Shown here one piece after another: positions 3,637-30,372 of a stretch of 64,000 bases of DNA. The position numbers and the translations under genes are program-made. This DNA is from Escherichia coli O127:H6 str. E2348/69. Lineage in GTDB: Bacteria; Pseudomonadota; Gammaproteobacteria; Enterobacterales; Enterobacteriaceae. The DNA is taken from assembly GCF_000026545.1 (NCBI RefSeq), contig NC_011601.1; one strand, 5' to 3'. Position 1 is the stretch's first letter. Each line of letters opens with the position of its first letter. The notes under the pieces are model-generated. The model ran no database searches. It was not told the DNA's origin and saw only the letters and a program-made list of their open reading frames with translations.

Positions 3637-4824
3637 ATGAATGATGTAAACATCGGGAAAGATAATTCTCGGCACTCGTTTGTTTTCACAGGCAAAGGTG
3701 GTGAGTATTTTCTTATTTGTCTTGTGAATTTTTTACTGACAATTATTACTCTGGGAATATATGGGCCGTGGGCATTGATAAAATGCCGTCGTTATATTTA
3801 TCAACATGTGACACTCAAGGGGCAACCATTTAGTTATAAGGGAACAGGTGGTGCCATTTTTGTTAGCATGTTACTTATTGTGGTGGTTTATCTTCTCAGT
3901 ATTTCTTGTTTTGCAGGTCAACACTTTGCGCTCGGTTTATTCCTGTTTGCTCTCTTGATCTGCGGTATTCCTTGTATGGCAGTGAAGAGTCTGCAGTATC
4001 AGGCGAACATGACCTCACTGAATGACATTCGCTTTGGCTTTAACTGCTCAATGATGCGTGCATGGTGGGTTATGTTAGGTCTGCCAGTTTTGTTGGCATT
4101 AGCTTTTTGGCTCGCACTGTACCTTATTGCGCAAGTGACGACATCGATAGGTGGGTTATTCTTTAACTTAGTGGTCTTAAGTTTGCTTTCCGTCATCGGA
4201 CTGGGTGTTATCAACGGTATTACCTATAGCAAGTGGATGCCATTACTGGGTAATAACACGACTTTTGGTGTCCATCAATTTTCCATTAAGGTCAACGTAA
4301 AAGAGTGCATTAAAGGCTGTATGCTCGCAATATTAACCATGGTTCCTTTCATCATTGTGATTGGTATTATGATCGCACCAGTATTTCAGCAGTTAATGAT
4401 GATGACCATGTTGGGTAGGTCTGATGCTGGCAGTGAGTTTGTATTACAATATTACCCGCAGATTATGGCTTCTTATTTCCTGTATTTTGTCGCGATCCTT
4501 GTGTTTGCCAGTTATCTCTATGTCACGTTACGCAGTTTGTTCCTGAATAATCTGACACTGGCAAATGGCGCTATTCGTTTTCATTCATCTGTTACCGCGA
4601 TCGGTATGCTTCTGCGCATGTTGGCGTTATTAATGGGGGCCTCAATTACCTGTGGTCTGGCTTATCCCTGGCTGAAAATGTGGATGGTTAGCTGGATTGC
4701 TAACAATACCCATGTCCAGGGCGACCTTGATTCGCTGGAGTTAACCAATGATGACAAACCGCAGGATAGCGGTTCGTTAATGTGGATATCTCGCGGTATT
4801 ATGCCGTATGTTCCGTTTATCTAA
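3637..4824 (+). CDS. yjgN: polytopic inner-membrane protein (DUF898-type)
   Basis: 395-aa ORF with many hydrophobic segments, at the K-12 yjgN position. Confidence 0.85.
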   Translation: MNDVNIGKDNSRHSFVFTGKGGEYFLICLVNFLLTIITLGIYGPWALIKCRRYIYQHVTLKGQPFSYKGTGGAIFVSMLLIVVVYLLSISCFAGQHFALGLFLFALLICGIPCMAVKSLQYQANMTSLNDIRFGFNCSMMRAWWVMLGLPVLLALAFWLALYLIAQVTTSIGGLFFNLVVLSLLSVIGLGVINGITYSKWMPLLGNNTTFGVHQFSIKVNVKECIKGCMLAILTMVPFIIVIGIMIAPVFQQLMMMTMLGRSDAGSEFVLQYYPQIMASYFLYFVAILVFASYLYVTLRSLFLNNLTLANGAIRFHSSVTAIGMLLRMLALLMGASITCGLAYPWLKMWMVSWIANNTHVQGDLDSLELTNDDKPQDSGSLMWISRGIMPYVPFI

Positions 4825-15257: not shown

Positions 15258-15342
15258 GCCGAAGTGGCGAAATCGGTAGACGCAGTTGATTCAAAATCAA
15301 CCGTAGAAATACGTGCCGGTTCGAGTCCGGCCTTCGGCACCA
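15258..15342 (+). tRNA. leuX: tRNA-Leu (anticodon CAA)
   Basis: 85-nt gccgaagtggcgaaatcggtagacgcagttgattCAAaatcaaccgtagaaatacgtgccggttcgagtccggccttcggcacca: long variable arm, CAA anticodon, encoded CCA. Confidence 0.97.
15312..15342 (+). repeat. attL core: 31-bp direct repeat (3' end of leuX)
   Basis: cgtgccggttcgagtccggccttcggcacca is identical to 30373-30403. Confidence 0.9.
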
Positions 15343-15859
15343 AGTCACTAAATTTCTTACAATACAATAAGTTAGGAAATAAAATCTATCTCTTTTGCCT
15401 GTAAGAAATGCTCTGTTATGTCCCTTGAAAAAGCCGCTGTGGTTGATAGTGGTAATTGGGATGTTAACTCATAGCGGCGTGTAGTTCCAAGCGTCAAACA
15501 CGTACTGACTCAACTTGAAAGCTATGACGTAGCCACCGTCTCTAAACAATCCCAAAAACTTTTAGTGAAGCGCATTTTAGCCCGATGCCCCCGTTCTGTC
15601 GCCGTCGCGAGACGCCGCAGGGGATAAACAGGTTTATGGTGGTCACGGTACTTGCAGACCATATGCAAGCTCTGCCAGCGGTTCGGCCTCGCTCCCCTTG
15701 GGTACATGGTCATCCTGATAAGCCTCACTAACTGACATAACTGTGATGTAGTCGCCAGAGGCTCCGCTTGTTGTCTTACCACCAACGGGGCTTATGACTT
15801 TTATTGTGTCAGTAAACGGCATATTATCAGTGATAGTTCAAACAGTTAGTAGGTAGAAA

Positions 15860-16408
15860 ATGAAGACCAAAAGAAAGAGCTTTGATCAATTCTTATGGCA
15901 TGATATTGATTTTGAAGATGATGCTGCAAAACAGGAAGAATACCTTGAATCTGCATTGCCACTTATTGGCCAGATTGTTATGTATTTCAATGCGCTAGAG
16001 AAAGAATTAGATAAAGTCATTTATGAAGGATTCAGCGATCGGTCAGATCAGTTAGGAATAATAATTGTGCATAACATGAATTATGCAGCAAAAGTCGAGT
16101 TATTTAGACGTCACTCCGAATTATTCCATTTGGGTGTTGGGCAGCATGTTGATATGTTTGAAGGTCTTATAAAGGATCTCAAGGAATGTGGACGGTTACG
16201 AAACATTACTGTACATGCTGACTGGGATAGCACTGATGTCGAAGGATATACATATTTAGGCATCAAAATAACTAACAATGGAATATCTCAGGAATATATC
16301 CAGTTTGACCTGGGGTCGTTGGAAAGTATCCTTCAATTGATTTTCAGTACGAGATATAAGTTGAGTGATTATTCAGACTTAAGGGGAGATATACTGGCTT
16401 CACATTAG
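15860..16408 (+). CDS. HEPN-like protein (RNxxxH motif), candidate RNase toxin/defence effector
   Basis: 182-aa, predicted helical ORF in AT-rich cargo. The motif CGRLRNITVHADW fits the HEPN R-x4-6-H (RNxxxH) signature. Confidence 0.5.
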   Translation: MKTKRKSFDQFLWHDIDFEDDAAKQEEYLESALPLIGQIVMYFNALEKELDKVIYEGFSDRSDQLGIIIVHNMNYAAKVELFRRHSELFHLGVGQHVDMFEGLIKDLKECGRLRNITVHADWDSTDVEGYTYLGIKITNNGISQEYIQFDLGSLESILQLIFSTRYKLSDYSDLRGDILASH

Positions 16409-16477
16409 TGCCATTTTTTTACTAAATAGCTAACAAATACTATCGGTAAAAGACAACATCGCAATGGTAAAGCTGCC

Positions 16478-16948
16478 GTGAAGAAGACATTGATTGATTG
16501 GATCATAGAGACTGATAACTGGACAGGAATCGCAGCGTGGGCGGGTTTCGGTTTGTCAGTATTTCAGTTAGTAAAATCAAGAACATCGCTAAGACTTTAC
16601 CTCGGGTGTGATCAGCACGAGGACAGAATATACGTTTCGAACATAAGCGCACATGATGTAACGTTGAGTGTAGCCGGTGTCGTAACAGCCAGTGGACGCC
16701 TTAGAATGCTTTCCGACGAGTATTCGGATGAGAACATGATCACACCGATGTTACCAAGAAGGTTGAAAGCACGAGACGAAATGGTCTTGAACGTGCCCTT
16801 CATAAATAAGGCTCATCACAACAAAGTGCATCATCGTGGCGGGGTGTATATCAAAACATCTGACGGCAAGATGTTCAGTGATGTTTGTTGGATTAGACGC
16901 CAATGGTGGTGGTTACTGTCTGTAATACTGCGAGACACAAAGCGATAG
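16478..16948 (+). CDS. small membrane-anchored protein, unknown function
   Basis: 156-aa ORF with a GTG start, 70 nt after the HEPN-like gene. It has an N-terminal hydrophobic helix (WTGIAAWAGFGLSVFQLV) and a Trp-rich C-terminal segment. The RBS is weak. Confidence 0.4.
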   Translation: MKKTLIDWIIETDNWTGIAAWAGFGLSVFQLVKSRTSLRLYLGCDQHEDRIYVSNISAHDVTLSVAGVVTASGRLRMLSDEYSDENMITPMLPRRLKARDEMVLNVPFINKAHHNKVHHRGGVYIKTSDGKMFSDVCWIRRQWWWLLSVILRDTKR

Positions 16949-17159
16949 GACAAGCGAGTCGCAGCTCATATGAGTGCCAACTGACATACGGCTCAGTTGG
17001 AATACTAGGATCGCGACTACGTGTTGTCTGCGAAAAACTGGGACTCAATAGATGGGTGTAGATTTAATTGATACGATCCTGTACGCGAATATTTCTCAGC
17101 ATAAATATCATCCCAGCGTCGGATTATGGTATTCAGAATGTGTGTGATGGTCTCTATCT

Positions 17160-17852
17160 TTATTCAGACCTTTTCTTCTTATCTTCCCATTCTTTTAAAG
17201 TGCTCTGATATCTTTCTTCATTTATTCTTTTTTCCTCGGTTCTGTCGCTTGAGTTGTAATTATCTGTTTTAATTTTCTTGGCTCCTTGGGATATCGGCCT
17301 CCAGTCCTCTCTAATTTTTTTCACTTGCTCGGCTATTTGTGTCATTGGACTCCTTGCTCCTAAATAGCTAACCCCCTCGAAAGAAGCCATATCATAAGAA
17401 TATTCATTGAGTTCTCTTTCTGTAGATCCGGGCTGTTTTGACCAACTGACACTAATAGAATAAATTTGATCCTTAATTTGCTCATACTTGCAGAGATTGC
17501 TGTTGAGAGAGTGTCCGTTTTTTAATACGCTGACCTTGCTAAATGGTACGCCTCTATTTTTTCTATGTTCTGCATTAACGAGAGGGGGATCAAATTCGAC
17601 CGCTATATCATAGGCTGGTGCATTTCCAGTATTAGCGATATTAATGTCAAAATAAAAAGCAGCCCAAGAGTTTGGTTCAAGAGTCACAACAACATGTGGT
17701 TGAACTGATGCGTCAACCATCCTTTTCGTTTCGTTTGCTAATAGCCTTGTTACTCTCCACAAGAAAAACGTAGCAACTGCTGTTAGCAGTGCTGCAAAAG
17801 CAGAGATCATTGTGCTTATAGTATCTATATGCTGTGTGATGAATTCGATCAT
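17160..17852 (-). CDS. single-pass membrane protein, unknown function
   Basis: I place the start at MIEFITQH (17852) behind a GAGGGAGA RBS. It has a TM helix (ISAFAALLTAVATFFLW), a beta-rich middle and a Lys/Glu-rich tail; 230 aa. Confidence 0.55.
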   Translation of the reverse strand: MIEFITQHIDTISTMISAFAALLTAVATFFLWRVTRLLANETKRMVDASVQPHVVVTLEPNSWAAFYFDINIANTGNAPAYDIAVEFDPPLVNAEHRKNRGVPFSKVSVLKNGHSLNSNLCKYEQIKDQIYSISVSWSKQPGSTERELNEYSYDMASFEGVSYLGARSPMTQIAEQVKKIREDWRPISQGAKKIKTDNYNSSDRTEEKRINEERYQSTLKEWEDKKKRSE

Positions 17853-18178
17853 TCTTCTCCCTCGAAATATAGTGCTTATTGTTATCAAAGGTAAGATAGC
17901 TCCCGGCTTGAAAAATTGCACGCTTATGGTTGCCCCTCCCTCGACGGTTAAGGCTTCAACTTCCCCCGTGCGCCTCTCCCAGCCGAAGGCTGGGCGGGCT
18001 GTATATCGATTTGCCTTCCTCTGTGGCGTTTATGACCCTGTTTCGCGTTCTTACCGTGAGGCTGTGGGTTAGGGTTACTCTTCTCTTTAAACGCTAAATC
18101 ACTCCTGAATCTCCACTGTTAAAGCACTTTGCGTTGATGCTTGGCGCTTCTCTTGGCTGTCGTTATTGTTTTGGCTTT

Positions 18179-18298
18179 GGTGTCATCAATCGTTCGATTC
18201 TTGCTACCTGTCTGAGTGATTACTATCTGGTATCATCAATTTAGGGTTTGACTAAATGCCACCACCAATGCAATGATGCTACCGTTTTGTGATACCAG
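18179..18298. repeat. res-like repeat cluster upstream of the serine recombinase
   Basis: GGTGTCATCAAT (18179-18190) and GGTATCATCAAT (18229-18240) are direct repeats 50 bp apart. CTGGTATCA (18227-18235) and TGATACCAG (18290-18298) form a 9-bp inverted repeat. Confidence 0.4.
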
Positions 18299-18314
18299 AC
18301 GGGTGAGGTGAACC

Positions 18315-18884
18315 ATGAGGACTTTTATCTACTGCCGCGTTTCAACACGCGAGCAGGATACGCAGAATCAGGTGCTGGCTATTGAGCGTGCCGGGTATAA
18401 GGTGCCGGAGAGCAGGGTAATCAGCGAGGACATTTCCGGCAGCGTTCAGGCTATGCAGCGCCCTAAGTTCCGGGCGATGGTTGAGCACAAGCTGGAAGCG
18501 GGAGATCAGCTTGTCGTGCTGAAACTGGACAGGCTGGGGCGTGACAACATCGATGTGCAGCAGACCATCGACATGCTGTTAGAACGCGGCGTGAAGGTGG
18601 TGTCTCTTGACCTGCCAGCGCGTGATCTGACTTCATCTGAGGGCAAGCTAATCCGCCAGATGTTTGGAGCCTTTGCTGAGTTCGAGCGAAACCGTATCCG
18701 TGAGAGGACGCTGGACGGGCTGGAGAAGGCGAAAGCCAATGGCGTTAAGCTGGGACGCAAGGAAGCCACCGACACCACTCAAAAGGTGCAGGAGCTGCGG
18801 AGTGAGGGGCTGTCTCAATCGAAGGTAGCGAAGCATCTCGGCGTTAGCGTGAGCACCGTTAAACGTCACTGGAACAAGGGTTAG
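18315..18884 (+). CDS. serine recombinase (resolvase/invertase family)
   Basis: 189 aa with a catalytic N-terminus (YCRVSTREQ), LDRLGR, E-helix FAEFERNRIRERT and a C-terminal HTH (LGVSVSTVKRH). RBS GAGGTG. Confidence 0.9.
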   Translation: MRTFIYCRVSTREQDTQNQVLAIERAGYKVPESRVISEDISGSVQAMQRPKFRAMVEHKLEAGDQLVVLKLDRLGRDNIDVQQTIDMLLERGVKVVSLDLPARDLTSSEGKLIRQMFGAFAEFERNRIRERTLDGLEKAKANGVKLGRKEATDTTQKVQELRSEGLSQSKVAKHLGVSVSTVKRHWNKG

Positions 18885-19439
18885 GGGTGATGACCTACAA
18901 CCAAATGAGGTGCCAGCACTGGCCGTTACTGGGCTGTGGGAGATGGATGACCTACAGCTTTTGTATTTATTTCAGAGTGTTATGTTATGCGAAATCTCGT
19001 AATGCTATGATTTATAGTGTATTTTCGTATTACTTGCGGCTCTTGATGCGAAGAGATGGCGGGGCTTTAGCCGTGCCAGACGATGAGCATCAAGATCAGA
19101 TTGTGAATGTGATTCATCACTGAACAATTCGAGGGATGGGGCAGGGGAAGGGATCAAAGGCTGCGTTGTCCAATCACTAAGCTAGATTTGAAGCTGGTCA
19201 ACACGTTAGTAGTATCTTTAAAGTCGCATTTTAAATACATGTACAAAAAAGGGTTCTTCCCCTACATCCCCTTCTCCTAATCAGTGTTATCGCTTCACGC
19301 TCACCACTGGCTGCGCTTCTCGCTGTGCTCCAGCCCACTCGATCGCCTTTGGCTCATTCCCGGTCTTCGCCTGCTGTGATGCTCGGCCACTCTACGCAAC
19401 CGTGCTTGCCGTGGCATGCAACGCGGCGGGGATGTGTAG

Positions 19440-19750
19440 TGGAACGGTACTTTTTATCTATATTATTAATTTAATCAATCACATACTGTTATCGGTAGGT
19501 ATTCTTCAAAACATCTTCATTCATTTCTGTATCGTTCAATCATCTTTCTTGTTCGTTTCCTTTCAGGTCTTAGCCGTTGGTCATTGGTCTTACTGCCCGC
19601 TGTGCTACTGCCAGCTATGGCACGCCGTCACGGTCTACTGTCTGTCACCTGTCCTACTGCGTTCACTGTCTGCCGTCTGTCATCCTGTCGGATTCCATCC
19701 GTTGACGTTCCGCGCTCGCTTGTTTCGGCTGCGCCGCGCTCGCTCTGCGT
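19440..19750. other. candidate replication origin or other cis-acting region (AT-rich tract plus short repeats)
   Basis: An AT-rich tract at 19447-19560 is followed by at least 4 copies of (C)TACTG(C/T)(C/G) at 19591, 19606, 19636 and 19655, multiple CTGTC, and CCGCGCTCGCT twice (19710, 19734). It is non-coding and lies upstream of the helicase gene. Confidence 0.35.
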
Positions 19751-20149
19751 ATCTAGCGATACTATATCACTATAGACACTTTCATAATTATATAATGATT
19801 ACAGTAACTTATGTTTTCTGTTTTAAAAGCTACTAATAAGGAGATATAGAGCATTACTTACCCGCTTTTGACCGACAAAAATCGCGTTGTTAAGTATTGC
19901 CAGCCCAGGCTCAATAAGGCTTAGCGAGGTGGTGGCTAAAAAATGAGCTAATGAAGGTATCTACTAAGGAGAAAGAATAACTCCCGAAGCGCGACAAACT
20001 CTCCGATTTTGAAAGTGACTATTAAGGCAGATAAAGACACTGACACTGTTGCTGACATGAAAACTTCTAAAAGGGCAGAGAGTCTGCCGAACCCGTACCG
20101 CTGACCCAACCTGAGCTAATACCTACCCCTATTTTCTGGAGATTTCACC

Positions 20150-21994
20150 ATGCCAACAAACCTACGCCGCCTGCTTGCGCAGGCTGCCGACGCTGACCCG
20201 CTCAATACTGCGGACGCAGATGTACAGCAAATGATCGCTGACGGGATTGTTATTCGACGTTCCAAGATATGCCCTGTAAAGCGTAAACCCGTTAAGGCGG
20301 CATACAACACAAAGACCGAAGAGTTTTATTACAATGCAGATGGCTCCGCGATGACCTTGCGGGAGTGGCGAACGCTGCACGGTGTTCAACCGAAGAAACA
20401 AAAACAGCGCTCTGACACTGGGTTGCGGCAAGTCATCCAGCCCGGCGACGCGATTCACTGCCGACGCGCTGAGATTGAGCAATGGCTTAATAAGAAGCCC
20501 GCTCGTTATGTTGACCCGCTGCCGCCAGATTTTCCCGGTGTTCGCGTAGACGATGCCGCATTGAAACCGCGCGAGCACGCCGTGCCGGAAGCGACAACCG
20601 GACAGAATGCTTTTCTCAAAGCCTGCCGCGAGTTCCTGATTTGCGATGAGAAGACCATGCGCCGTATCAGTCGGGGCATGAACCAAATGGAAGCTATGCG
20701 CAACGCAGATTTCAAACGCTACGGAGACTCAGGGGAGTTTCGTCAATTGTGGTGTGGAGAGTCGAAGCCTACCGAAGATAGATTTAATAGTTCTAATCAT
20801 CATTGTGACCCGAACGGCTTGGCTGCTTCGCCGTCTGTGCCGCCACTGAATACTGCACCGTATGAGTTCCGCCCGCTGGCTCGCTGTGACCGAAACGCAC
20901 GCGTTAGCCTGCTGCCACCTGATGGGCTGGAGTGGAGGCCGGGGCAGTTGTCTGTTGCTGATGCGATCTTTTCCCGTGGCAGTGATGTGCTTGCCGTACT
21001 GCCGACCGGGTATGGCAAAAGCGCCGCCTTCACTTATCCATTGATTTATGAGTCCCGCGCTGGCATTGGCCTGTCTGTAATCGTGGTTCCTACTAATACC
21101 CTTAAGCGTCAGATTCTCCGCCAGTTGCGGGAGGCTGGCATTCACGCTGTGGCCTTTGGCGATAAGCTACCGAGGCACCGCAACGCACAACAACTGGCGG
21201 GACTAGCAGCCGGGGCGTTCCGGGTTGCTGTTGTTTCGCCTGAACATCTGGTTCCGTCGAGTCAGGTTCTCGCGGCGCTGATGGCTTATGGCGTTGATCG
21301 TTTTATTATCGATGAGGCACACACGGTCAAAGACTGGGATTTCCGCCCAGCTTACGACGCAATGCAGCACACACTACAGAATGCTTTTCCCTCGGCTCAG
21401 CGCTGCGTGTTTACGGCTACTCTACTACGAGAAAATGAGCGCGGTTTAATGGAGGCGCTGGGATGCCGTGGCGATTACGTTACATTCCGTGCTGATGTTG
21501 CTCGCGAGAATATCCAGTTGATTCCGGTCAGGCAGTGCCGCCAGCGATACCGCGCGGCTGTTGGTCTGGTCGAGGCTCTGCCAGAGGAAGAGAAGACGCT
21601 CATTCTAGTCAATGACCTTAAGACGTTGCGGGCGTACCTGAAACTCTTCGGCGACCGGGCGCGCCCATATCACTCGAAGACGATGCACCTGAGCAACGAG
21701 GAACGCCACGCAAACGCTGAGTGGTTTGCCTCTGCGCCGGGCGCGATTCTGATTGCTACTAAAGCCTTCGGGCTGGGTGCTGATGTTCCTGATATCCGTA
21801 ACGTTGTCGTGACATACGTTCCCGATGACTTGCCTGATCTCGTTCAGATGATTGGACGAGCCGGGCGCGATGGGGAACCTGCCCGCGCTTTTCTGCTGTG
21901 GTCATCGCTGGCGCTGGATGTTGCTCCTGATGAGCTTGCTTACTTCTACCGCCCTGAAAACTGTAACTGGCAGTACATCGCTAAATACCTCTGA
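20150..21994 (+). CDS. RecQ-family SF2 DNA helicase with a ~260-aa unknown N-terminal region
   Basis: 614 aa with motif I PTGYGKS, motif II DEAH, TAT, and the RecQ-type motif VI QMIGRAGRDG. RBS TGGAG. Confidence 0.85.
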   Translation: MPTNLRRLLAQAADADPLNTADADVQQMIADGIVIRRSKICPVKRKPVKAAYNTKTEEFYYNADGSAMTLREWRTLHGVQPKKQKQRSDTGLRQVIQPGDAIHCRRAEIEQWLNKKPARYVDPLPPDFPGVRVDDAALKPREHAVPEATTGQNAFLKACREFLICDEKTMRRISRGMNQMEAMRNADFKRYGDSGEFRQLWCGESKPTEDRFNSSNHHCDPNGLAASPSVPPLNTAPYEFRPLARCDRNARVSLLPPDGLEWRPGQLSVADAIFSRGSDVLAVLPTGYGKSAAFTYPLIYESRAGIGLSVIVVPTNTLKRQILRQLREAGIHAVAFGDKLPRHRNAQQLAGLAAGAFRVAVVSPEHLVPSSQVLAALMAYGVDRFIIDEAHTVKDWDFRPAYDAMQHTLQNAFPSAQRCVFTATLLRENERGLMEALGCRGDYVTFRADVARENIQLIPVRQCRQRYRAAVGLVEALPEEEKTLILVNDLKTLRAYLKLFGDRARPYHSKTMHLSNEERHANAEWFASAPGAILIATKAFGLGADVPDIRNVVVTYVPDDLPDLVQMIGRAGRDGEPARAFLLWSSLALDVAPDELAYFYRPENCNWQYIAKYL

Positions 21995-22031
21995 GTCGAA
22001 AGGCTCTCCCTGATTCTCTGGAGTTAATCAT

Positions 22032-22469
22032 ATGCCTGTTACCGAACATGCGCAGCGTCGTGCTGCGCGTGCGGATGCGCTCATCACCGCACAACTAGCC
22101 TTTGCCCTGAATGGGTACAACTGGGATGAACTGGCCGAACCTCATCGCAAGACCCTTAATCGTGAGGCCATCATTCGCGAGGTATCTACACCGCTGGAGC
22201 GATATTGCCTGCTGAATGATTGCGAGCCGTGGGAGTGTCTGGCCGCTGTACTGAACCGCATGAAAAGGCCGGATGGCTCGCGTCGCTGGAAAGCCGTCCG
22301 GTTGTCCGACCGGGTTTTCAATGGCCGGGTGCATCCAGTGCGCAAGACTCCTGATGAAGTTTACGCCGCCATTGCCCGCCGCTTGTTCCTGCCGAAGCCT
22401 GTGCATCAAGAAGTGATACAGCACATCCGTGCGCTTGGCTTGTTACCAGTTGGAGATAACCACCAATGA
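22032..22469 (+). CDS. hypothetical protein (island operon)
   Basis: 145 aa with RBS TGGAG 8 nt upstream; its stop overlaps the next start (ATGA). Confidence 0.6.
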   Translation: MPVTEHAQRRAARADALITAQLAFALNGYNWDELAEPHRKTLNREAIIREVSTPLERYCLLNDCEPWECLAAVLNRMKRPDGSRRWKAVRLSDRVFNGRVHPVRKTPDEVYAAIARRLFLPKPVHQEVIQHIRALGLLPVGDNHQ

Positions 22470-22675
22470 CGAAATCTGAATTTGAAAATGAAACATGGCG
22501 AATGAAGGGCTTGCTTCTTGGGGCGCTGATTCGCCGCCTTGAGGAAGATAAGGCTGGCGAGTCGCGCATGGTCGCAGCGGAGTTATCCAGTGCGGTCAAC
22601 TTCCTTAAGGCCAACGCCGTAGAAGCGCCGGACACATCATTCAACAACGTGTTCCCGGAGGATGACGAACAATGA
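22466..22675 (+). CDS. hypothetical protein (island operon)
   Basis: 69 aa with ATGA overlaps at both ends. Confidence 0.55.
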   Translation: MTKSEFENETWRMKGLLLGALIRRLEEDKAGESRMVAAELSSAVNFLKANAVEAPDTSFNNVFPEDDEQ

Positions 22676-22848
22676 CCCCTGAACAATTCAGACAATGGTT
22701 CGCCACGCTGCCACCGAACTATCAGAGCGCCGCACGCACCATGTACGACAACGCCCGCAAGTCGGGCATACATACCGCGTCAAGCCTTGCGCTGATTCAC
22801 ACGTTGGTTACTGACCAGATCAAATTTGATTCGGAGTTTAATTTATGA
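22672..22848 (+). CDS. hypothetical 58-aa protein (below the ORF-track cutoff)
   Basis: Hand translation gives MTPEQFRQWFATLPPNYQSAARTMYDNARKSGIHTASSLALIHTLVTDQIKFDSEFNL. ATGA overlaps with both neighbours fill the gap in the coupled chain. Confidence 0.5.
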   Translation: MTPEQFRQWFATLPPNYQSAARTMYDNARKSGIHTASSLALIHTLVTDQIKFDSEFNL

Positions 22849-23408
22849 CTTTGAGTATTACCGATATCCAGCGCATTAACGCGCTGGCTCATAAGCACCT
22901 AAAGAACAATGAAGAGATTGCAGCGGAGACAGGTCATACCCTGACCGATATTGACGCTGTAATCCGTGGCGTCTATGTCGATGACTTGGCCGAACATTGG
23001 AAAGACGATGCTGATATTACTCTGGCGGAGTACAACGCCATCCGCAGCCGCTATAAGCCCGGCAAGTTGCACCGCGATACAGAGTTTATGATTGCCCGCG
23101 ATATGCTGATTCGCCCTGAGACTGTGCTGGCTATCGCCCATTCCCGCTTTAGCAACGTCCACACGCACCCAGTGCCGAAAGCCGTCAAAGCAAAGCCGGA
23201 GAAAGCGAAAGTAGTGCGCAAGTTAGTGCTTACTGATTTAGATGAAATCCACAAGTTAGAGCGCTTCGGTTGGCCTGCTGCGGAGATCGCCGGGAAGCTG
23301 GGCGTCCCTGTTGAGGTCGTCGCGCATGTGCAACGCTGCCTGAGAAATCGTTGGTCGTACCCGGATACTCTGGAGTCTGTTAACTCCAAATTCAGCGAGG
23401 CTGAATGA
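22845..23408 (+). CDS. hypothetical protein with a probable C-terminal HTH
   Basis: 187 aa. The C-terminal segment WPAAEIAGKLGVPVEVVAHVQRCL looks HTH-like. Translationally coupled to its neighbours. Confidence 0.6.
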   Translation: MTLSITDIQRINALAHKHLKNNEEIAAETGHTLTDIDAVIRGVYVDDLAEHWKDDADITLAEYNAIRSRYKPGKLHRDTEFMIARDMLIRPETVLAIAHSRFSNVHTHPVPKAVKAKPEKAKVVRKLVLTDLDEIHKLERFGWPAAEIAGKLGVPVEVVAHVQRCLRNRWSYPDTLESVNSKFSEAE

Positions 23409-23641
23409 TGGCAGAGAACGAACCGCTGCACCCCGCCGTTAACCCTGATCTCTACGTGAACCTTGACGAACAACGCGAAGGATACGCTCCGATTGAATCA
23501 CAGGGTTGGGATGTGCTGACGCAGAACCTGACCGGGAAAGGTCGAACTGACCCCAGCCAAACACTTAACCAGAATCCGAAACAACGCCCGCACGGCTCCG
23601 TTGGTGAGCGTCGTTGGCTTCGTAAACGTGGATTACTTTAA
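23405..23641 (+). CDS. hypothetical protein
   Basis: 78 aa with an ATGA overlap with the upstream gene. Confidence 0.5.
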   Translation: MMAENEPLHPAVNPDLYVNLDEQREGYAPIESQGWDVLTQNLTGKGRTDPSQTLNQNPKQRPHGSVGERRWLRKRGLL

Positions 23642-23653
23642 CGAGGAATTACC

Positions 23654-23893
23654 ATGAGCAAAACTATCGTATTGCTGCCGCCCCGCAAGAATACAGACTG
23701 GGCTGCACAATTAAAGCTGATTTCTGAATCGCTTGAGGTGAGTCAGGCAGACCTCGCCCACGCCTATCAGGTTGATCGTCGGGATATGGGTAAAGCGTAT
23801 CACGGTGTGCGCAAACTGCCGGAGCGTTGTGTGCCTGTTCATATGCTGTTGTTAGCGCAGGTACACGACTTTAGAGCATTATCAGGAGAATAA
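23654..23893 (+). CDS. small HTH-like protein
   Basis: 79 aa, RBS GAGGA. The segment LEVSQADLAHAYQVDRRDMGKAYHG resembles an XRE-type HTH. Confidence 0.55.
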   Translation: MSKTIVLLPPRKNTDWAAQLKLISESLEVSQADLAHAYQVDRRDMGKAYHGVRKLPERCVPVHMLLLAQVHDFRALSGE

Positions 23894-23896
23894 TTT

Positions 23897-24577
23897 ATGT
23901 CTGACCAGAATGTTAATCCGTACCTTTCCGGTGCTGATGCTGCATCGCAGCAATCGCCATACATGGCTGCACCTGTTGGCGCTGACAATGGCGCATCCCG
24001 CTTTAGCTCTGTGCCTGCTGATGCTGATTTCCTCCGTACCCAGCCCGTTAACGGTAATGATGGCGGCCAATGGAATAATGGCAGTATCGCGAATCAGCAG
24101 GATCAGAACGCTGACAGCGCCGGGGCGCAGGTGGGCGATACTATCTCCCTGATGGATGGAACAGCTATTGAGTACACCGCCGAGCTGCAAGGATTGATGG
24201 GGCAGTTTCACCAGTCTGTCGAAAGCCAGCTAGGGCAGGGGACAGTTGACGCTATGTTGCAGTACGCTGGCACGCTCGACGCCGGGACGCAATCGACCCT
24301 TGAACGGATGGTTATGTCTGGCGACCCTGCGCAGATGCAGCGGGCGGTTCAGTATCTGCAAGAGCGTATGGCTGGCGGTTCCATTACCGGTTACGTCCCG
24401 AACGGCCAGACTGCCGCGCAACCTGTCGGAATGTCACATGCTGAGTTTATAGCAGCGTATGACCAGCTTTCGCAGTGGGCGCAGCAATCAGGGTATGGCC
24501 CCGGCCATCGCCAGTACGACGAACAATACCGTGCTCTGGTTGCGCAGCGCTCCGCTGGCAAACGTGCTGGTCGCTAA
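23897..24577 (+). CDS. Gln/Ala/Gly-rich protein in the scaffold position (candidate capsid assembly/scaffolding protein)
   Basis: 226 aa, RBS AGGAG. It has a low-complexity N-terminal half and a helical C-terminal half, and lies upstream of the capsid-like gene. Confidence 0.45.
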   Translation: MSDQNVNPYLSGADAASQQSPYMAAPVGADNGASRFSSVPADADFLRTQPVNGNDGGQWNNGSIANQQDQNADSAGAQVGDTISLMDGTAIEYTAELQGLMGQFHQSVESQLGQGTVDAMLQYAGTLDAGTQSTLERMVMSGDPAQMQRAVQYLQERMAGGSITGYVPNGQTAAQPVGMSHAEFIAAYDQLSQWAQQSGYGPGHRQYDEQYRALVAQRSAGKRAGR

Positions 24578-24716
24578 CGCCCAACGGTGGAATGCGCCCT
24601 GCAAGACTGAGTGCGCACCAACCCGGTACTACCACACCAATCTAAGCGCATGAGTCCCCGCAAGCCGCATTCTGCGCGGCATCTGAAAGCCTGTTTTTAA
24701 TTAACCGAGGTTCGTA

Positions 24717-25130
24717 ATGAGTACCTGTAATTTCCATGCCGTGGTGCGTGTCGCTGACGTGCGCCCGGATTTCGCCTTGCCGCTGGGTAGATGCGACCAC
24801 ATTTACCCTGAGCGTGTGCAGCACGTTTTCAATCCAGACGAAGCGGTTTATATCGTTGCCCGGTCTGCCACATCCGGCACCCGCACATCTGGCGTTAGCC
24901 GTGGGCTTTCCCCTGTGCTGCCGCCGAAGATGGCCGAGCGGATGCGCGAACGTGAACGGCACGAGAAAAACCGAGTCAGACCCCGCAAGGTGATCACTGA
25001 GGCGATACGCGCTGACATTATCGATCGCTCTGCAAAAGGTCAGAAGAATCGTTACATTGCAAGCAAGGTTGGTGTGTCTGAAACCTCTGTGCGGAAGGTG
25101 TTGAACATGGCGCGTATGAGTGCGCACTAG
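24717..25130 (+). CDS. DNA-binding protein with a C-terminal HTH (regulator or small-terminase-like)
   Basis: 137 aa, RBS GAGG. The C-terminus NRYIASKVGVSETSVRKVLN resembles a resolvase-type HTH. Confidence 0.55.
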   Translation: MSTCNFHAVVRVADVRPDFALPLGRCDHIYPERVQHVFNPDEAVYIVARSATSGTRTSGVSRGLSPVLPPKMAERMRERERHEKNRVRPRKVITEAIRADIIDRSAKGQKNRYIASKVGVSETSVRKVLNMARMSAH

Positions 25131-25349
25131 TGCAAGGTAATACGTTCACCTTACTTCACGCGCACTAACCCCTGAGAACCGTGCCAGCTCTGGCCTCAAA
25201 ACGCCCATTTCGGGGCACCTCATTCCTCTTAATCGATACCGTTCTGAATCCTGCCTCGGCGGGAGGATTACGCACGCCCGCGCCATGACGATGGCCGGGC
25301 CTATCTCGTCAGTGAATCCGCTGGCACAACCTACGTAGGAGTTTTACAT

Positions 25350-26345
25350 ATGGCCGATAACATTTACTCGCCTGACCAGTTCCGCCCACATTATGGCGGG
25401 GTGGAATCTGACAATGATATTCACATCGAGGCTTATGACCGGGATGTCCAGACCCGTTTAGAGTCCAAATCCGTATTTCTGGCCGAGGGGCTGTCTACAT
25501 ACAGGCCGCTGAAAGCCAGCAACCAATATCGTGTTGATCGCCTGAGTGGTGATCTGGAGGTGAAGGGCAGAACCGCAGGGCAATCGCTGGAGCCTACCGC
25601 TGTTAAGTCGGATAAGCTGATTATCTCTGTGGATACGCTGAGTTATATCCGCATCCCGATTGACTATCAGGATGACTGGACAGCACCCACCTTTCGCTCA
25701 GAGCTGAGCCGCAATATCGGTACTGCTCACGCTAAATTCTACGACGAAGCGCACACCATCCAGCTAATCAAAGCGACTGACTTTGTACCGCCGCCGACGT
25801 TGCAACCAACGTTTAACCCGCTGACGGATAATGTTGTCTCGCTCGACCTGACAGCGGGGAGCGAAGAGGACGCCGCAAACGAATTGTCTCACGCCGTAAA
25901 AGCGGCTGCTAATCGCTTTCTCACTGAGAAAGATATTCCGGTGGCCGAGCTGGTACTGCTTATCGACCCGGCTTGGTTCAGCATCCTGATGGAACATAAG
26001 AAGCTGATGAACATCCGTTACAGCCGGGATAGTGGCAACGATTACGCATGGCGTCGAGTTGGCTATGTCGCTTGGGTACGAGTCATTGAGCTGAACAGTT
26101 ACCCGCAGGGAGCCATTACCGCGCATGAACTGGGCGCTGATTATAATGTGACCGCAGGGGAAGCGCTGACACGGGCGACGCTGTTCCGGCCTGCGTCTGT
26201 ACTTGTGACAGTCGAAGCGCAGAGCGTCATCAATCGCCAGTGGGATGAGGAACGCGAAATGACAATGGTGATGGACTCATATCGCCTGTTCAATGTTGGG
26301 CTGCGCCGCCCGGACTGCGTTATCAATTTCCGACAAGCTGCATAA
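25350..26345 (+). CDS. major capsid protein, T7 gp10-like (HK97 fold, no delta domain)
   Basis: 331 aa, RBS AGGAG. Block-wise resemblance to my recollection of T7 gp10A: FRSELSRNIGTAHA / VRSEYTSQLGESLA, LLIDPAWFSIL / FYCDPDSYSAIL, and C-terminal FNVGLRRPDCVINF / AMGHGGLRPEAAGAVVF. Confidence 0.55.
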   Translation: MADNIYSPDQFRPHYGGVESDNDIHIEAYDRDVQTRLESKSVFLAEGLSTYRPLKASNQYRVDRLSGDLEVKGRTAGQSLEPTAVKSDKLIISVDTLSYIRIPIDYQDDWTAPTFRSELSRNIGTAHAKFYDEAHTIQLIKATDFVPPPTLQPTFNPLTDNVVSLDLTAGSEEDAANELSHAVKAAANRFLTEKDIPVAELVLLIDPAWFSILMEHKKLMNIRYSRDSGNDYAWRRVGYVAWVRVIELNSYPQGAITAHELGADYNVTAGEALTRATLFRPASVLVTVEAQSVINRQWDEEREMTMVMDSYRLFNVGLRRPDCVINFRQAA

Positions 26346-26361
26346 CTGGAGGGGCTGAGTC

Positions 26362-26871
26362 ATGGTTAATGATGCTTACGCCCCTGAGCTGTTGCGATCC
26401 CTTTTCCTGTATGACCCGGTGACAGGTCGCCTGCACCATAAAGCTAGCCGATGCCGGGTTACGGCTGGCTCCTATGCTGACTCCACCCGGCGAGCTGATG
26501 GCTATCGTCAAGTTGCCCTGCGACTGGATGGCAAGCAGTACCAGCTAAAAGCCCATCGCGTAGCGTGGATTCTTGCGCATGGTGCTATTCCCCACGGTAT
26601 GCAGATCGATCACATCAACGGTACCCGTGACGATAACCGCTTATGCAATCTGCGATTGGTTACGCAGCGGGAAAACGACCAGAACCGACGCAAGGCAAGG
26701 GGGTATAGCTGGAATAAGGGCTGTAGCAAATGGGAGGCTTACATACGCGTTGGTGGTGTACTCCGTCACCTTGGCTTATTCACATCCGAAGCGGCAGCTC
26801 GTGCTGTGTACCTGAAAGCTAAAGCCAGATACCACCCCTCAACGCCTGACGATTTATTGCAGGCTGCCTAA
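26362..26871 (+). CDS. HNH homing-type endonuclease with an AP2 DNA-binding domain
   Basis: 169 aa with HRVAWILAHGAIPHGMQIDHINGTRDDNRLCNLRLVT (HNH_3 type) followed by WNKGCSKWEAYIRVGGVLRHLGLFTSEAAA (AP2-like). Confidence 0.8.
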   Translation: MVNDAYAPELLRSLFLYDPVTGRLHHKASRCRVTAGSYADSTRRADGYRQVALRLDGKQYQLKAHRVAWILAHGAIPHGMQIDHINGTRDDNRLCNLRLVTQRENDQNRRKARGYSWNKGCSKWEAYIRVGGVLRHLGLFTSEAAARAVYLKAKARYHPSTPDDLLQAA

Positions 26872-26889
26872 CCCTCGGAGGTTCCATTA

Positions 26890-27315
26890 ATGGCTGATGA
26901 AAAGCCGATTAGGTCGCTGGCAGGTGATGACCCACGCCGCCAGCAGTACGCCGAACTGTTGGCGCAGGCTAGCCGCATGACTATTCCCCGGCTGCATCCG
27001 GGCGATGCTAACAGTGTGATGAGTCAGCTTGCAACGATGCTTGGCGCACCTGTCCCGATAGTCGGTGCTATGACTGAGCACGCCGCTGCATGGCGTGCCT
27101 GTCTGCTTGAGCAAGGACTTGGCGAGCTTCTGGATGGCTTGAGTAAACAGGTGCTGACCATCTTCTTTCTGCTCTGCTGGAGAGACAGCGCCTTGCGATT
27201 GGCTGGTAAGCAAAAGAAACGGCTTACAGCCGCCAGCGAGGGTTTGACCATTGAGCAATACCGGGCAATGCACCCGGCTTACAGAGAGGATAAAGAACAT
27301 GATAACCACGATTAA
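26890..27315 (+). CDS. hypothetical protein
   Basis: 141 aa, RBS GGAGG 8 nt upstream. Confidence 0.55.
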   Translation: MADEKPIRSLAGDDPRRQQYAELLAQASRMTIPRLHPGDANSVMSQLATMLGAPVPIVGAMTEHAAAWRACLLEQGLGELLDGLSKQVLTIFFLLCWRDSALRLAGKQKKRLTAASEGLTIEQYRAMHPAYREDKEHDNHD

Positions 27316-27598
27316 ATTAAGGTGGCGGTACATCGAGACGCCGCCAATGACTGGCGCACTCGCTGACCTGAAACAGTGGGTAATGAATGCCGTAGAGCCT
27401 GAGCTTGAGGCTGAATTTCGTAAGCTGCTGGGGCAGATGCGTCGCAATGGTATCAGTGATGGGCGCGTAAATGCGGTGGCTGATGAGCTTTATGCTCTGG
27501 TATGCCAACGCCAGCGCGAAGAATACGAAGCCTGCAAGCGGGCTGCCTCTGACAATGGAGACTTTGAATCATGGTTACACGGACAGACCAGCTACTAA
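27299..27598 (+). CDS. hypothetical protein
   Basis: I prefer the start at MITTIKLRW (27299), which has RBS AGAGAGGA upstream, over the track start at 27251. 99 aa. Confidence 0.5.
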   Translation: MITTIKLRWRYIETPPMTGALADLKQWVMNAVEPELEAEFRKLLGQMRRNGISDGRVNAVADELYALVCQRQREEYEACKRAASDNGDFESWLHGQTSY

Positions 27599-27996
27599 GA
27601 AAAGCTATGAGGGGCTATCTGGAACACCTTGGCAACATGCCGCTGGCGGAACGGATTACAAATGCTGCTGTATTCGAAGATGTGTATCGCTTTTTGTTGA
27701 ATGGTTCCGGGCGGCTGGAGCTGCGCCGCGCTGACGTGGCTGCCGTCCGTGTCTTCCTTTGGAACTATCAATACCGCCGCTGTGCTGTGACAGGTAAGCC
27801 GCTGCGCCTTGCGTCTGCCGTTCTGGATCACTGCCACCGAACCGGGCGCGTGCGTGCTGTGGTGCATCGTTCTGCTAACGCTGCTGAGGGAGGCCGCTAC
27901 GTTGGGCGGACGTGTGGTGTTAGCGTTACGAATCTAAGGGCTATGATTGGCAGCTATCGCAAGCAATACACTGGTATTGGCATGTTATATCCATAA
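27571..27996 (+). CDS. endonuclease VII-family (HNH-like) nuclease
   Basis: 141 aa. CAVTGKPL...VLDHCHRTGRVRAVVHRSANAAEG resembles the Endonuclease_7 motif (C-x2-C ... DH-x-H-x-TG-x-VRG..C..CN..G). Confidence 0.6.
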   Translation: MVTRTDQLLRKAMRGYLEHLGNMPLAERITNAAVFEDVYRFLLNGSGRLELRRADVAAVRVFLWNYQYRRCAVTGKPLRLASAVLDHCHRTGRVRAVVHRSANAAEGGRYVGRTCGVSVTNLRAMIGSYRKQYTGIGMLYP

Positions 27997-28037
27997 CTGC
28001 GGGGTAATAAACCCCGCCGAAATAGTAGCGTAGCCAC

Positions 28038-28940
28038 TCAAACAGGAATGTTGTAGTAATGACAAATTGCATTAGTTAGTAGAGCTGGTGCAGCAGACGC
28101 TGCAATATTTAGCGTCCCCGCATATGCTTTACCAATCATATTTACAACCCACTTCCCAAGGCTATCACTGAAATTGTCCGGGGTAGTTGGGGCGGGTGAT
28201 TCTTGTATAGCTTGATGAAGGCTCTTAATATCTTCATCATTAGCGCCCCAATCCTTGAGCTGCTTTTCAAGCGAGTTGAAGTCTCCAGCGTTGACAGTAT
28301 TATTTTGTGAAATGTCCCCGTTACCAGAGCCAATAACGCCAGCATTGTTTACGTTGCCATGAATGTTGGTCACGTTATGGACAGTCATTGGCGCTACCTC
28401 TTTTTCTCTTAATGAAAACTGTAACCCTTCGCCTAAAATACCCTTTGACTCTAAGTCTAAAGACCAGTCGAGGATCTTATTCCTAACGGTAGTAATTACA
28501 TGTTCTAGTACACCAGCGCTTATAACCCATACCATCTCAGTCTTTTGTCCGATACTTTGAGCTAATGTATCAGCCATCCAATCCGGGAGAGGTAAAAAAG
28601 GGTTTTCTCCTTTATTGCTCATCTTTTTTATAGATGATATTGATTCTGTAATGTGAAACGTTGATACCATTGCATTTAATTCCGCGTCGTTGAAGTTGAC
28701 CACAAGCGGAACCCAGCTCTGATGTTGGGGACTATATGCTTTTAACTGCGATTGACCTTTCCTGTATTCAGGAACCGTATCAAAGCTGGGATAGCCATTT
28801 AATTCGAGCTGTATCCACTCGGTCAAATCGCTGAGGCCGAGCTTCACTGCAATCATTTTGGCCTTCATGAGTACAGATAAAATGTCGGAGTCGGGATCGC
28901 ACGCTAGTGCTTGAAGTTCAAGAACTGGTGAGTTAGCCAT
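28038..28940 (-). CDS. AbiTii-like abortive-infection family protein
   Basis: 300 aa. The N-terminus LELQALACDPDSDILSVLMKAKMIAVKLGLSDLTEWIQLELNGY matches the AbiTii N-terminal pattern as I recall it. It lies adjacent to the integrase. Confidence 0.55.
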   Translation of the reverse strand: MANSPVLELQALACDPDSDILSVLMKAKMIAVKLGLSDLTEWIQLELNGYPSFDTVPEYRKGQSQLKAYSPQHQSWVPLVVNFNDAELNAMVSTFHITESISSIKKMSNKGENPFLPLPDWMADTLAQSIGQKTEMVWVISAGVLEHVITTVRNKILDWSLDLESKGILGEGLQFSLREKEVAPMTVHNVTNIHGNVNNAGVIGSGNGDISQNNTVNAGDFNSLEKQLKDWGANDEDIKSLHQAIQESPAPTTPDNFSDSLGKWVVNMIGKAYAGTLNIAASAAPALLTNAICHYYNIPV

Positions 28941-29027
28941 ATCAAGACCTTAGTATTGTTTTGATAAGGTATCTTACCCGCATCGAACCATGCAGTCTAA
29001 GGTTCGCAGGCCAAACTCACCCATGAG

Positions 29028-30239
29028 TTAGATGTTTATTCCTTCATGCTGGATGAGTTCGACATACTTACCGATCTCTATAGGGGAAGCTGCATTTTTC
29101 GAGTAAGTTTTGAAGCTCTCTGTACTCCCGCGCTCATGACCGACGAGCAGGGCAATACGATCTTCTGGCACTTGAGCACGGTCGAGCTGTTGCACAAAAG
29201 CATGGCGGAGTGAGTGAAACACTTTTCTCTCTGCGGCAGGCTCGCCAAGAGCTTTACGCTTTGCTCGCGTGAATTGCTGCGTATGCCACGTTGAGCGCTT
29301 CCCATCGGCCCGGTCTGTTATTGATGCGTGATAGAACAGAAAACCGCTATGTGTGGTCTTGAGCAATGACTTCACGAGAGGGATTATCTTGCTGTGTACA
29401 GGGACGATTCGCGCCGCGCTCTTAGTCTTCCCCTCGGTGATCTCAAAGCACAATATACCCTCGATAGTTTTAATACTGCTTTCACGTAGCGTACATATCT
29501 CATTGATCCGCATACCGCTGTATGCACCAATAGCCGTTACCGCCTTCATCTCGTCATCAAGCAAGGCATAGACCTTTGCCAGCTCTCCCGGTGCGAAGAC
29601 TTCATAGCTGACCTTGCTGCTTTTTGCTTCGAGCGCATGACCGCGCCAAGGATTGTCCTGTGGTGCATCGTGATAGCGATTGCGTGCCAGATCCCATATC
29701 TGCGCCAGTGCGCTTATATAGTTTTGGATAGTTTGGGGCGCTCGCTCAGTTTTGAGCTTATCTAACCAGCCTGTAACTATGGTTCGGTTAATATCCCGCA
29801 ACTGAACATCTTTCTTTTTCAAGTGGGTTAACAGCACCTCTACGGCTTTGTTGGTCTTGGATAACGTGGTTAGCTTTCGCTTCTCGCTGTATTGAAGCAG
29901 GTACAAATCACGCATTTTTAGCAAGGAAGGGCAAGCCTGAATCGATGCACCAAACGATGCGGGGGCTTCCTTGGCGTACACACTGACACGGCGTAGCTCA
30001 TCAATGATTTGGTCTACAGATGAGCCGCCTTGTGGCTTTAGCAGATTCCGTAAGCGAGTCCATTCCAGAGCAATAGCATCTCGAAACAATCGCGCTTGGC
30101 GTATGTCTCGTGTTCCTGTGCTTTTCATAAAGTAGCGCTTCCCTTGGAACAGGTGGCGCATATAGCTGGGAATAGCTATCCGCACGAGGTAATTCCCGCA
30201 GGGATCTAAAACTAGATAACGATCTCTCTTGAAACTCAT
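29028..30239 (-). CDS. tyrosine-type site-specific integrase
   Basis: 403 aa with a catalytic set consistent with R (SGMRINEI), HSLRH, LVGH and a C-terminal Y (FKTYSKN). Its start lies 133 nt from attR. Confidence 0.9.
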   Translation of the reverse strand: MSFKRDRYLVLDPCGNYLVRIAIPSYMRHLFQGKRYFMKSTGTRDIRQARLFRDAIALEWTRLRNLLKPQGGSSVDQIIDELRRVSVYAKEAPASFGASIQACPSLLKMRDLYLLQYSEKRKLTTLSKTNKAVEVLLTHLKKKDVQLRDINRTIVTGWLDKLKTERAPQTIQNYISALAQIWDLARNRYHDAPQDNPWRGHALEAKSSKVSYEVFAPGELAKVYALLDDEMKAVTAIGAYSGMRINEICTLRESSIKTIEGILCFEITEGKTKSAARIVPVHSKIIPLVKSLLKTTHSGFLFYHASITDRADGKRSTWHTQQFTRAKRKALGEPAAERKVFHSLRHAFVQQLDRAQVPEDRIALLVGHERGSTESFKTYSKNAASPIEIGKYVELIQHEGINI

Positions 30240-30372
30240 ACAAACCCCGGTTATGTTGTCGGGGCTTTTTCATGGCTAAACAGTCTGTGAAATGTGCCGG
30301 GGTCATGAGCTTTAGTCTAGCTAGTTCAACAAGTTAACGATGATTGTTGAAGCAAGCTAAGTCGCTATAACC

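Follow-up and report, generated by a model that had tools for sequence, protein, structure and literature searches.

The window analysed here is a stretch of 64,000 nucleotides from Escherichia coli O127:H6 str. E2348/69 (NCBI RefSeq assembly GCF_000026545.1, contig NC_011601.1), numbered from its first letter. It contains an island of 15 kb, inserted in the tRNA gene leuX and bracketed by exact 31-bp repeats (15312-15342 and 30373-30403), whose tRNA-proximal end carries three open reading frames (ORFs) at positions 15860 to 17852. An original prediction, made from the sequence alone, had described these ORFs as lying between attL and a serine recombinase gene, as lower in G+C content than the rest of the island, and as a candidate abortive-infection cassette composed of a HEPN-like ribonuclease (RNase) and two membrane-anchored partners. 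The genes, their position and their composition were recovered as described; comparison with other genomes supports three independently acquired single-gene modules in an accessory slot, and not one system. The features of this end of the island are the following.

15312-15342, + strand: attL, the 31-bp 3' end of leuX (pattern search and pairwise alignment; exact copy at attR)
15548-15806: conserved left-end block of the island backbone (blastn against sister loci, 94-98% identity, in islands at leuX and at tRNA-Gly)
15807-17900: hypervariable cargo slot, with flanks that are conserved in sister islands and contents that are not
15860-16408, + strand: ORF1, 182 amino acids (aa; WP_000851053.1), a stand-alone protein of HEPN-like type, predicted to be an RNase, with the motif R114-N115-x3-H119
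16478-16948, + strand: ORF2, a small conserved protein of 156 aa from GTG 16478 or 152 aa from TTG 16490
17160-17852, - strand: ORF3, 230 aa from ATG (WP_000569068.1), a homologue of the P2 Z-region 'putative lysogenic conversion protein' (phrog_11802)
18315-18884, + strand: serine recombinase (Resolvase and HTH_7, Pfam E 8e-37), the first backbone gene right of the slot, kept in sister islands

The slot of about 2.1 kb, located between the conserved left end and the serine recombinase gene, has a G+C content of 39.8% (36.6% for ORF1, 45.3% for ORF2 and 38.7% for ORF3), compared with 53.7% for the island backbone and 50.3% for the chromosomal flank. In five compared loci, homology stops at 15796-15806 and restarts at 17901/17902. 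ORF1 and ORF3 are both labelled hypothetical protein in RefSeq, and ORF2 was not annotated by the Prokaryotic Genome Annotation Pipeline (PGAP). The ratio of non-synonymous to synonymous substitution rates (dN/dS) is 0.034 for ORF1, calculated against homologous DNA, 0.10 for ORF2 and 0.10-0.11 for ORF3, which indicates purifying selection on all three, as expected of real coding genes.

Inside the slot, the breakpoints of DNA homology coincide with the edges of each of the three genes. The ORF1 module (approximately 15770-16420) includes its own upstream region, the ORF2 module covers 16490-16947, and the ORF3 module (approximately 17170-17992) is in convergent orientation and possesses its own conserved upstream block. 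Co-occurrence was assessed by tblastn of the three proteins against the fetched loci, complemented with the gene lists of ORF2 and ORF3 loci found later. Homologues of ORF1 are present without ORF2 or ORF3 in Erwinia typographi, Erwinia sp. AG740, Rahnella, Serratia, Salinisphaera, Christiangramia and marine metagenomes, and those of the Bacteroidota have neither gene close by. Homologues of ORF2 are found without ORF1 or ORF3 in E. coli VREC0864 and at all other ORF2 loci, Kosakonia excepted, while ORF3 homologues stand without ORF1 or ORF2 in NCTC11023, in P2 prophages, in Xanthomonas and in Rhizobium. Because each gene is found elsewhere with other neighbours, and because the breakpoints lie at gene edges, the three genes assort independently, which supports their separate acquisition.

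The single cassette of the original prediction is contradicted by this distribution, and a lack of co-occurrence in other genomes is one of the outcomes that the prediction itself had named as refuting it. The three genes are indeed adjacent in one AT-rich block beside attL, and abortive-infection systems frequently employ HEPN effectors as well as membrane effectors (PMC9122126); however, no locus outside E2348/69 has all three genes, and among 5426 complete E. coli genomes the whole region is covered in only three records, all of them E2348/69 sequences. Moreover, ORF3, with its convergent orientation and a separate conserved upstream block, is the one ORF present in the Z region of phage P2-EC53; the Kosakonia locus lacks it, in NCTC11023 it has different partners, and VREC0864 carries ORF2 only. 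Comparison of the ORF2 and ORF3 families by hhalign found them unrelated, with no similarity between their profiles. We consider a three-gene system highly improbable.

A closer tie between ORF1 and ORF2 deserves more weight. In Kosakonia arachidis, a block of 1,624 bp is 97% identical to 15325-16947, comprising the leuX end, the left end of the island, ORF1 and ORF2; ORF3 is missing, and homology restarts at 17902. Two observations thus weigh against full independence: ORF1 and ORF2 travel together in Kosakonia, and in Ewingella a DUF4145 gene, which belongs to another HEPN family (PMC3710099), precedes the ORF2 homologue by about 55 bp. ORF1 and ORF2 could therefore form a two-gene system, in which a HEPN RNase would act with a small, possibly membrane-associated sensor, regulator or second effector, with ORF3 being separate. 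The two genes share one strand and are separated by 70-80 bp, and at both junctions where ORF2 lacks the 75-aa gene that normally precedes it (E. coli/Kosakonia ORF1 and Ewingella DUF4145), the upstream gene is of HEPN type, the ATG of ORF2 is replaced (by ATT or ATA) and a conserved TTG is kept. On the other hand, 97% identity points to one recent event rather than independent co-occurrence, the Erwinia ORF1 module stops 12 bp past the stop codon, ORF1 homologues lack ORF2 in the two Erwinia strains, Rahnella, Salinisphaera, Christiangramia and marine metagenomes, and ORF2 usually adjoins a 75-aa gene to which it is translationally coupled, often together with a divergent 262-aa gene. Weighing these points, we regard the two-gene system as unlikely.

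The usual setting of ORF2 also bears on its start codon. Among its 28 homologues, one from E. coli VREC0864 (WP_000219901.1) is 94% identical to it. A 75-aa gene precedes the ORF2 homologue in Raoultella, Klebsiella, VREC0864, one further species and one IMG/VR contig; in VREC0864 the two genes overlap as TGATG, and a divergent 262-aa gene is often found upstream of the pair. In E2348/69 the 75-aa gene is absent, and the ATG of the homologues reads ATT, so that translation is left to an in-frame GTG (16478) or TTG (16490). Homology to the loci with the 75-aa gene starts exactly at 16490. The GTG start proposed originally is thus in frame, but the conserved TTG, giving 152 aa, is more likely. 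Likewise, the transmembrane helix proposed for both partners is strong in ORF3 and weak in ORF2, whose hydrophobic N-terminal stretch (residues 15-32) contains no 19-residue window with a Kyte-Doolittle mean above about 1.1, making its anchoring in the membrane doubtful. ORF2 has no match in Pfam, NCBIfam, PADLOC or PHROGs; tblastn against phage and plasmid collections gave a single remote match on a Pseudomonas plasmid, and an IMG/VR scan one relative, in the usual order of 262-aa gene, 75-aa gene and ORF2. We interpret ORF2 as the orphaned distal gene of an operon for a 75-aa and a 152-aa protein, and it may be a remnant. The arrangement of a divergent 259-266-aa protein, a 75-aa protein and an ORF2 homologue recurs at Enterobacterales island ends (seven loci); none of these proteins has a Pfam or PADLOC match, and the arrangement might constitute a separate, uncharacterised system.

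ORF1 contains CGRLRNITVHADW, in which the original prediction had recognised the RNxxxH form of the HEPN signature. A bare R-x4-6-H string is not in itself evidence, because chance matches are also present in ORF2 and in unrelated neighbours; what counts is the conservation of R114, N115 and H119. An indexed search retrieved 17 homologues and an exhaustive hidden Markov model (HMM) search 486 cluster representatives. The stretch DLKECGRLRNxxxHAxW is unchanged in 13 homologues with identities down to 38%, and these 13 share R114, N115 and H119 without exception, while across 73 diverse members each of the three residues is conserved to 90% or more. In this 73-member family, which has a mean column identity of 27%, the only near-invariant positions are I36, G37, F43, L46, E47, K78, L107, R114, N115 and H119. 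The AlphaFold model (predicted local distance difference test, pLDDT, 77; predicted template modelling score, pTM, 0.75) has helices at 22-57, 64-93 and 99-119, followed by a beta-hairpin (131-147) and a last helix (151-181). The HEPN superfamily has been described as an alpha-hairpin bundle with a conserved R-x4-6-H motif (Anantharaman et al. 2013, PMC3710099), and the helices and the motif position of the model match this description, which supports the HEPN assignment: the predicted fold is a four-helix up-down bundle of two alpha-hairpins, R114-x4-H119 closes helix 99-119 as the motif that ends helix 3, where the loop to helix 4 begins, and the arginine is directly followed by a polar residue (N, D or H in the definition), here N115.

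Further support is provided by the relatives of ORF1. When the 73 members were scanned singly against Pfam, the matches were recurrent but weak: seven matched HEPN_Cthe2314 (best E 5e-4), seven HEPN_RiboL-PSP (best E 1e-3) and two HEPN_Apea (best E 0.012), and HepT-like and pEK499_p136 were also matched; the recurrent PADLOC matches were PD-T4-2_B, Csx1/Csm6 and Cas13c/d. Fusion homologues combine the domain with Schlafen AlbA_2 and HEPN_Toprim_N, or with AIG2, and distant homologues adjoin restriction-modification, PIN, DUF3800 and toxin-antitoxin genes. Several results weigh against this assignment. The HEPN matches come from relatives and not from ORF1, and lie mostly between E 1e-4 and 0.1, the best being 4.5e-06 (PADLOC Csx1) and 5e-4 (Pfam). 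ORF1 itself has no match in Pfam, NCBIfam or PADLOC, and ORF1 and its 12 closest homologues match none of the three HEPN families Cthe2314, RiboL-PSP and Apea at E up to 10. Foldseek of the model against the PDB returned nothing significant (best E 0.39), and searches of PDB sequences with the ORF1-family profile were empty at E up to 10. Finally, HEPN helix 2 should carry a second conserved acidic residue, of which ORF1 has no clear counterpart: E47 is near-invariant but sits in the first long helix, and D51, instead of K or R, comes after it. Comparison of the ORF1 family by hhalign with the AbiJ_NTD4 protein of a sister island, the DUF4145 protein and the 262-aa neighbour of ORF2 was not significant, tblastn against phage and plasmid collections returned nothing, and a scan of IMG/VR found no relative. 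On balance we conclude that ORF1 is a member of the HEPN superfamily, in a family for which Pfam, NCBIfam and PADLOC have no model; the original HEPN-like call is supported.

Among characterised HEPN proteins, the one most pertinent to a stand-alone gene is HepS ('HEPN Solo'), a 218-aa abortive-infection anticodon nuclease encoded by the Salmonella prophage Gifsy-1, in which binding of a phage tail-tip protein triggers cleavage of tRNA anticodon loops (PMC13043305; PDB 9oik). No sequence relationship to ORF1 is detectable, since the ORF1-family profile retrieves no PDB chain, 9oik being in the PDB, and HepS has terminal strands whereas ORF1 has an internal beta-hairpin after the motif. The Cthe_2314-like (PF18730), RiboL-PSP-HEPN (PF18735) and Apea-like (PF18739) families have the same kind of motif as the ORF1 family and are the Pfam families most often matched by its members, though not by ORF1 and its 12 closest homologues. 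No PADLOC ApeA model was matched by ORF1. ApeA is a validated single-gene defence. The toxins of HEPN-MNT pairs (PDB 7ae2, 5yep, 8xdj and 6m6u) differ from ORF1, which is longer, has the hairpin insert and shows no sequence similarity to them. No MNT antitoxin gene lies beside ORF1, whose neighbours are ORF2 and non-coding DNA in a slot without a nucleotidyltransferase (NTase) domain, and no NTase domain is present among the Pfam matches recorded for genes beside its homologues.

ORF3 corresponds to a previously recorded but unexplained moron of P2 phages, and is unrelated in sequence to ORF1 and ORF2. It matches phrog_11802 over its full length (residues 1-228 of 230, E 4.4e-127), and is 84% identical to CAD54906.1 of phage P2-EC53, the 'putative lysogenic conversion protein' encoded by the one ORF in this phage's "proviral Z-region", and to gp24 of the P2-like phage R18C. 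It is thus a full-length homologue of the P2 Z/fun-slot morons (P2-EC53 ORF1, R18C gp24, phrog_11802), which are the only sizeable ORF in that slot of the phages; these reside in P2 phages, whereas ORF3 is located here in a satellite-like island. At least 243 homologues were found. In E. coli P2-like prophages the gene lies between the tail-fibre assembly and tail-sheath genes, while more distant homologues, extending to Xanthomonas, sphingomonads and Rhizobium, adjoin an integrase gene or sit between DUF6680 and a CAP12/PCTIR TIR gene. Scans of ORF3 against Pfam, NCBIfam and PADLOC gave no match, phrog_11802 being the sole library match, and with PADLOC-DB v2 each of the three proteins of the slot matched 0 families at E up to 1. 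The N-terminal membrane helix of ORF3 is strong (Kyte-Doolittle 19-residue mean 1.87) and is followed in the AlphaFold model by seven strands, forming an immunoglobulin (Ig)-like beta-sandwich with C-terminal helices, in agreement with the beta-rich domain of the original prediction. The absence of K or R before the helix and the presence of four after it suggest an N-out/C-in topology, and ORF3 is predicted to be a single-pass membrane protein with its Ig-like domain facing the cytoplasm.

The contents of the slot were compared in the inspected subset of the genomes that match the island backbone. Its cargo there is of several types: a 190-aa RNxxxH protein with a DUF3800 protein (PADLOC PDC-M04A), accompanied by ORF3 or by a protein of 136 aa; an AbiJ_NTD4 protein (PADLOC PDC-S32) with an ORF3 disrupted by IS3; a lone 304-aa protein; or a 259-aa protein with a 75-aa protein and ORF2. 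Because sister islands carry candidate defence genes (AbiJ_NTD4/PDC-S32 and DUF3800/PDC-M04A) at the same position, the comparison supports an accessory-gene slot at the tRNA-proximal island end that serves as a hotspot of the defence type, in line with the anti-phage cargo that the original prediction had expected at an att-proximal hotspot of a satellite-like island. In P4-satellite and P2-phage hotspots, defence cargo is swapped as modules between conserved flanks (PMC9122126, PMC13586616). The likeness lies in a short variable locus with conserved flanks in a small integrative element, at which known, candidate or unknown defence genes are exchanged as modules. The differences are that the slot described here is att-proximal and located beside a serine recombinase gene, and that the element itself is a different one, with a major head protein, an HNH endonuclease, a DEAD/DEAH helicase and the serine recombinase; no P4 markers were noticed, although no formal satellite classification was made. 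One result weighs against the explanation favoured below: in a consensus scan, promoter-like or terminator-like sites were no commoner than in shuffled sequence.

In the sister island of E. coli OkiPb01685 (locus coordinates 2209-4174), the ORF3 homologue is interrupted by an IS3-family insertion, and decay and turnover are therefore ongoing inside the slot. The first gene of the DUF3800 cassette of sister islands encodes a 190-200-aa protein with a K-L-R-N-x3-H motif (four loci). The 190-aa RNxxxH protein matches the ORF1 family weakly (hhalign E 5.7e-5, probability 66%; hmmsearch 9-10 bits), and a Bacteroidota homologue of ORF1 lies two genes away from a DUF3800 protein, so that HEPN-like and DUF3800 genes may be a recurrent pairing (PADLOC PDC-M04).

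The explanation that we favour, and hold to be probable, is that the accessory slot of the leuX island of about 15 kb has collected three independent modules: ORF1 as a solo HEPN RNase, ORF3 as a Z-region moron and ORF2 as the orphaned distal gene of an operon. The evidence supports directly the reality of the genes, the module boundaries, independent assortment, motif conservation, predicted fold and hotspot context. RNase activity, the trigger and any anti-phage effect are inferred. ORF1 would be a metal-independent RNase, with an active site formed by two R-N-x3-H motifs meeting in a dimer. Following the example of HepS, the protein would be present at all times and stay inactive until it receives a cue from a phage, and once triggered would cut tRNA or other RNA, thereby aborting the infection. 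The membrane helix of ORF3, with N out and C in, would tether the Ig-like domain and the charged helices to the inner membrane face, where the protein may act in superinfection exclusion or in a membrane-level defence.

The same genes could also be cargo that has no role in defence, with ORF1 serving to stabilise or regulate the island as an addiction toxin or another RNA-processing factor, ORF3 altering host physiology by lysogenic conversion, and ORF2 decaying. HEPN proteins do also serve as toxins of toxin-antitoxin systems and as RNA-processing factors (PMC3710099), but no antitoxin-like or MNT gene adjoins ORF1, and its relatives lie amid restriction-modification and toxin-antitoxin genes or are fused to Schlafen and HEPN/Toprim domains. 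The sole database label of ORF3 is 'lysogenic conversion protein', yet its relatives occupy the P2 Z/fun slot, one of them beside a CAP12/PCTIR TIR gene. As for ORF2, its partner gene and its ATG are gone and PGAP made no call, but the gene is intact and under purifying selection. Since sister islands, in addition, hold PADLOC candidate defence genes in the same slot, a role outside defence seems improbable to us.

A broader proposal goes beyond the reading of three independent modules. According to it, ORF1 is the founding member of a new family of solo HEPN RNases that act in abortive infection (approximately 486 clusters at 50% identity, in Proteobacteria and Bacteroidota) that would be used alone or with ORF2; ORF2 would be a portable accessory able to follow more than one kind of HEPN gene (ORF1-family genes in E. 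coli and Kosakonia, a DUF4145 gene in Ewingella); and the slot would mark an undescribed family of capsid-encoding satellites with an att-proximal defence hotspot. That all of these parts hold jointly is rather unlikely.

If ORF1 is active, a compact single-gene HEPN effector family would be added to the abortive-infection RNases borne by mobile elements, and HepS demonstrates that solo HEPN proteins can sense phage structural proteins directly (PMC13043305). The slot, with its fixed flanks at 15806 and 17901 and 61 backbone-matching E. coli genomes, is a place to harvest uncharacterised candidate defence genes, among them ORF3, a widespread protein of the P2 Z region to which no function has been assigned since its first deposition. 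Current concepts are left unchanged, and the known patterns of HEPN effectors and of hotspots in satellites are extended; the three genes are useful candidates for a defence screen.

The remaining features of the island and its boundaries are listed below.

15258-15342: leuX, tRNA-Leu(CAA) (ARAGORN)
20150-28000, + strand: island backbone (Pfam, PADLOC, PHROGs and RefSeq annotation)
20150-21994, + strand: DEAD/DEAH helicase (Pfam, PADLOC)
25350-26345, + strand: major head protein, phrog_267 (PHROGs)
26362-26871, + strand: HNH endonuclease (backbone annotation)
27571-27996, + strand: endonuclease VII-like gene (backbone annotation)
29028-30239, - strand: tyrosine integrase adjoining attR (RefSeq 'site-specific integrase')
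30373-30403, + strand: attR, repeating the 31 bp of attL exactly (pattern search, pairwise alignment)

Between the helicase and the major head protein genes lies a run of small genes without known function. With its att repeats and gene content, the element at 15312-30403 looks like a small, compact, capsid-encoding element of satellite type. A backbone query comprised of the recombinase and helicase genes (18178-21994) was matched by 61 of the 5426 complete E. coli genomes, 49 of which cover at least 80% of the query, and the islands that match this segment sit at leuX or at the tRNA-Gly gene adjoining actS. Related-looking elements with resolvase, DUF6945 or Phage_cap_E are present in Erwinia and Klebsiella. 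A literature search found nothing on the E2348/69 leuX island or on P2-EC53.

At the left end, the 73 bp just inside attL (15433-15505) are 89% identical to DNA beside the proA-associated islands of Erwinia sp. AG740 and Raoultella terrigena. The single match of an Rfam scan was the tRNA, with none in this stretch, which could be a conserved recombination or regulatory site of the island end. The left-end block 15548-15806 is overlapped by an 87-aa ORF on the minus strand (15522-15785), the core of which (…MTMYPRGARPNRWQSLHMVCKYRDHHKPVYPLRRL…) was found again in Kosakonia and, more weakly, in Rahnella, where it lies on the opposite side of the ORF1 homologue; it may be a small protein or else a DNA or RNA element.

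The helicase (20150-21994) matches the PADLOC 'DpdF' model PDLC02858 with an E value of 1.9e-277, its residues 112-614 aligning to positions 2-504 of the 504-position profile. Either this sub-model was built from the present satellite helicase family, or the family is linked to Dpd systems. The match prompted us to consider a Dpd (7-deazaguanine) island, which was not adopted: no other dpd gene is present among the annotations and scans of the island, with no dedicated dpd search having been made. Directly past attR, type I restriction genes extend over 30628-36645 on the minus strand (hsdR and a RefSeq-annotated S subunit), and the satellite-like element therefore adjoins a chromosomal restriction locus.

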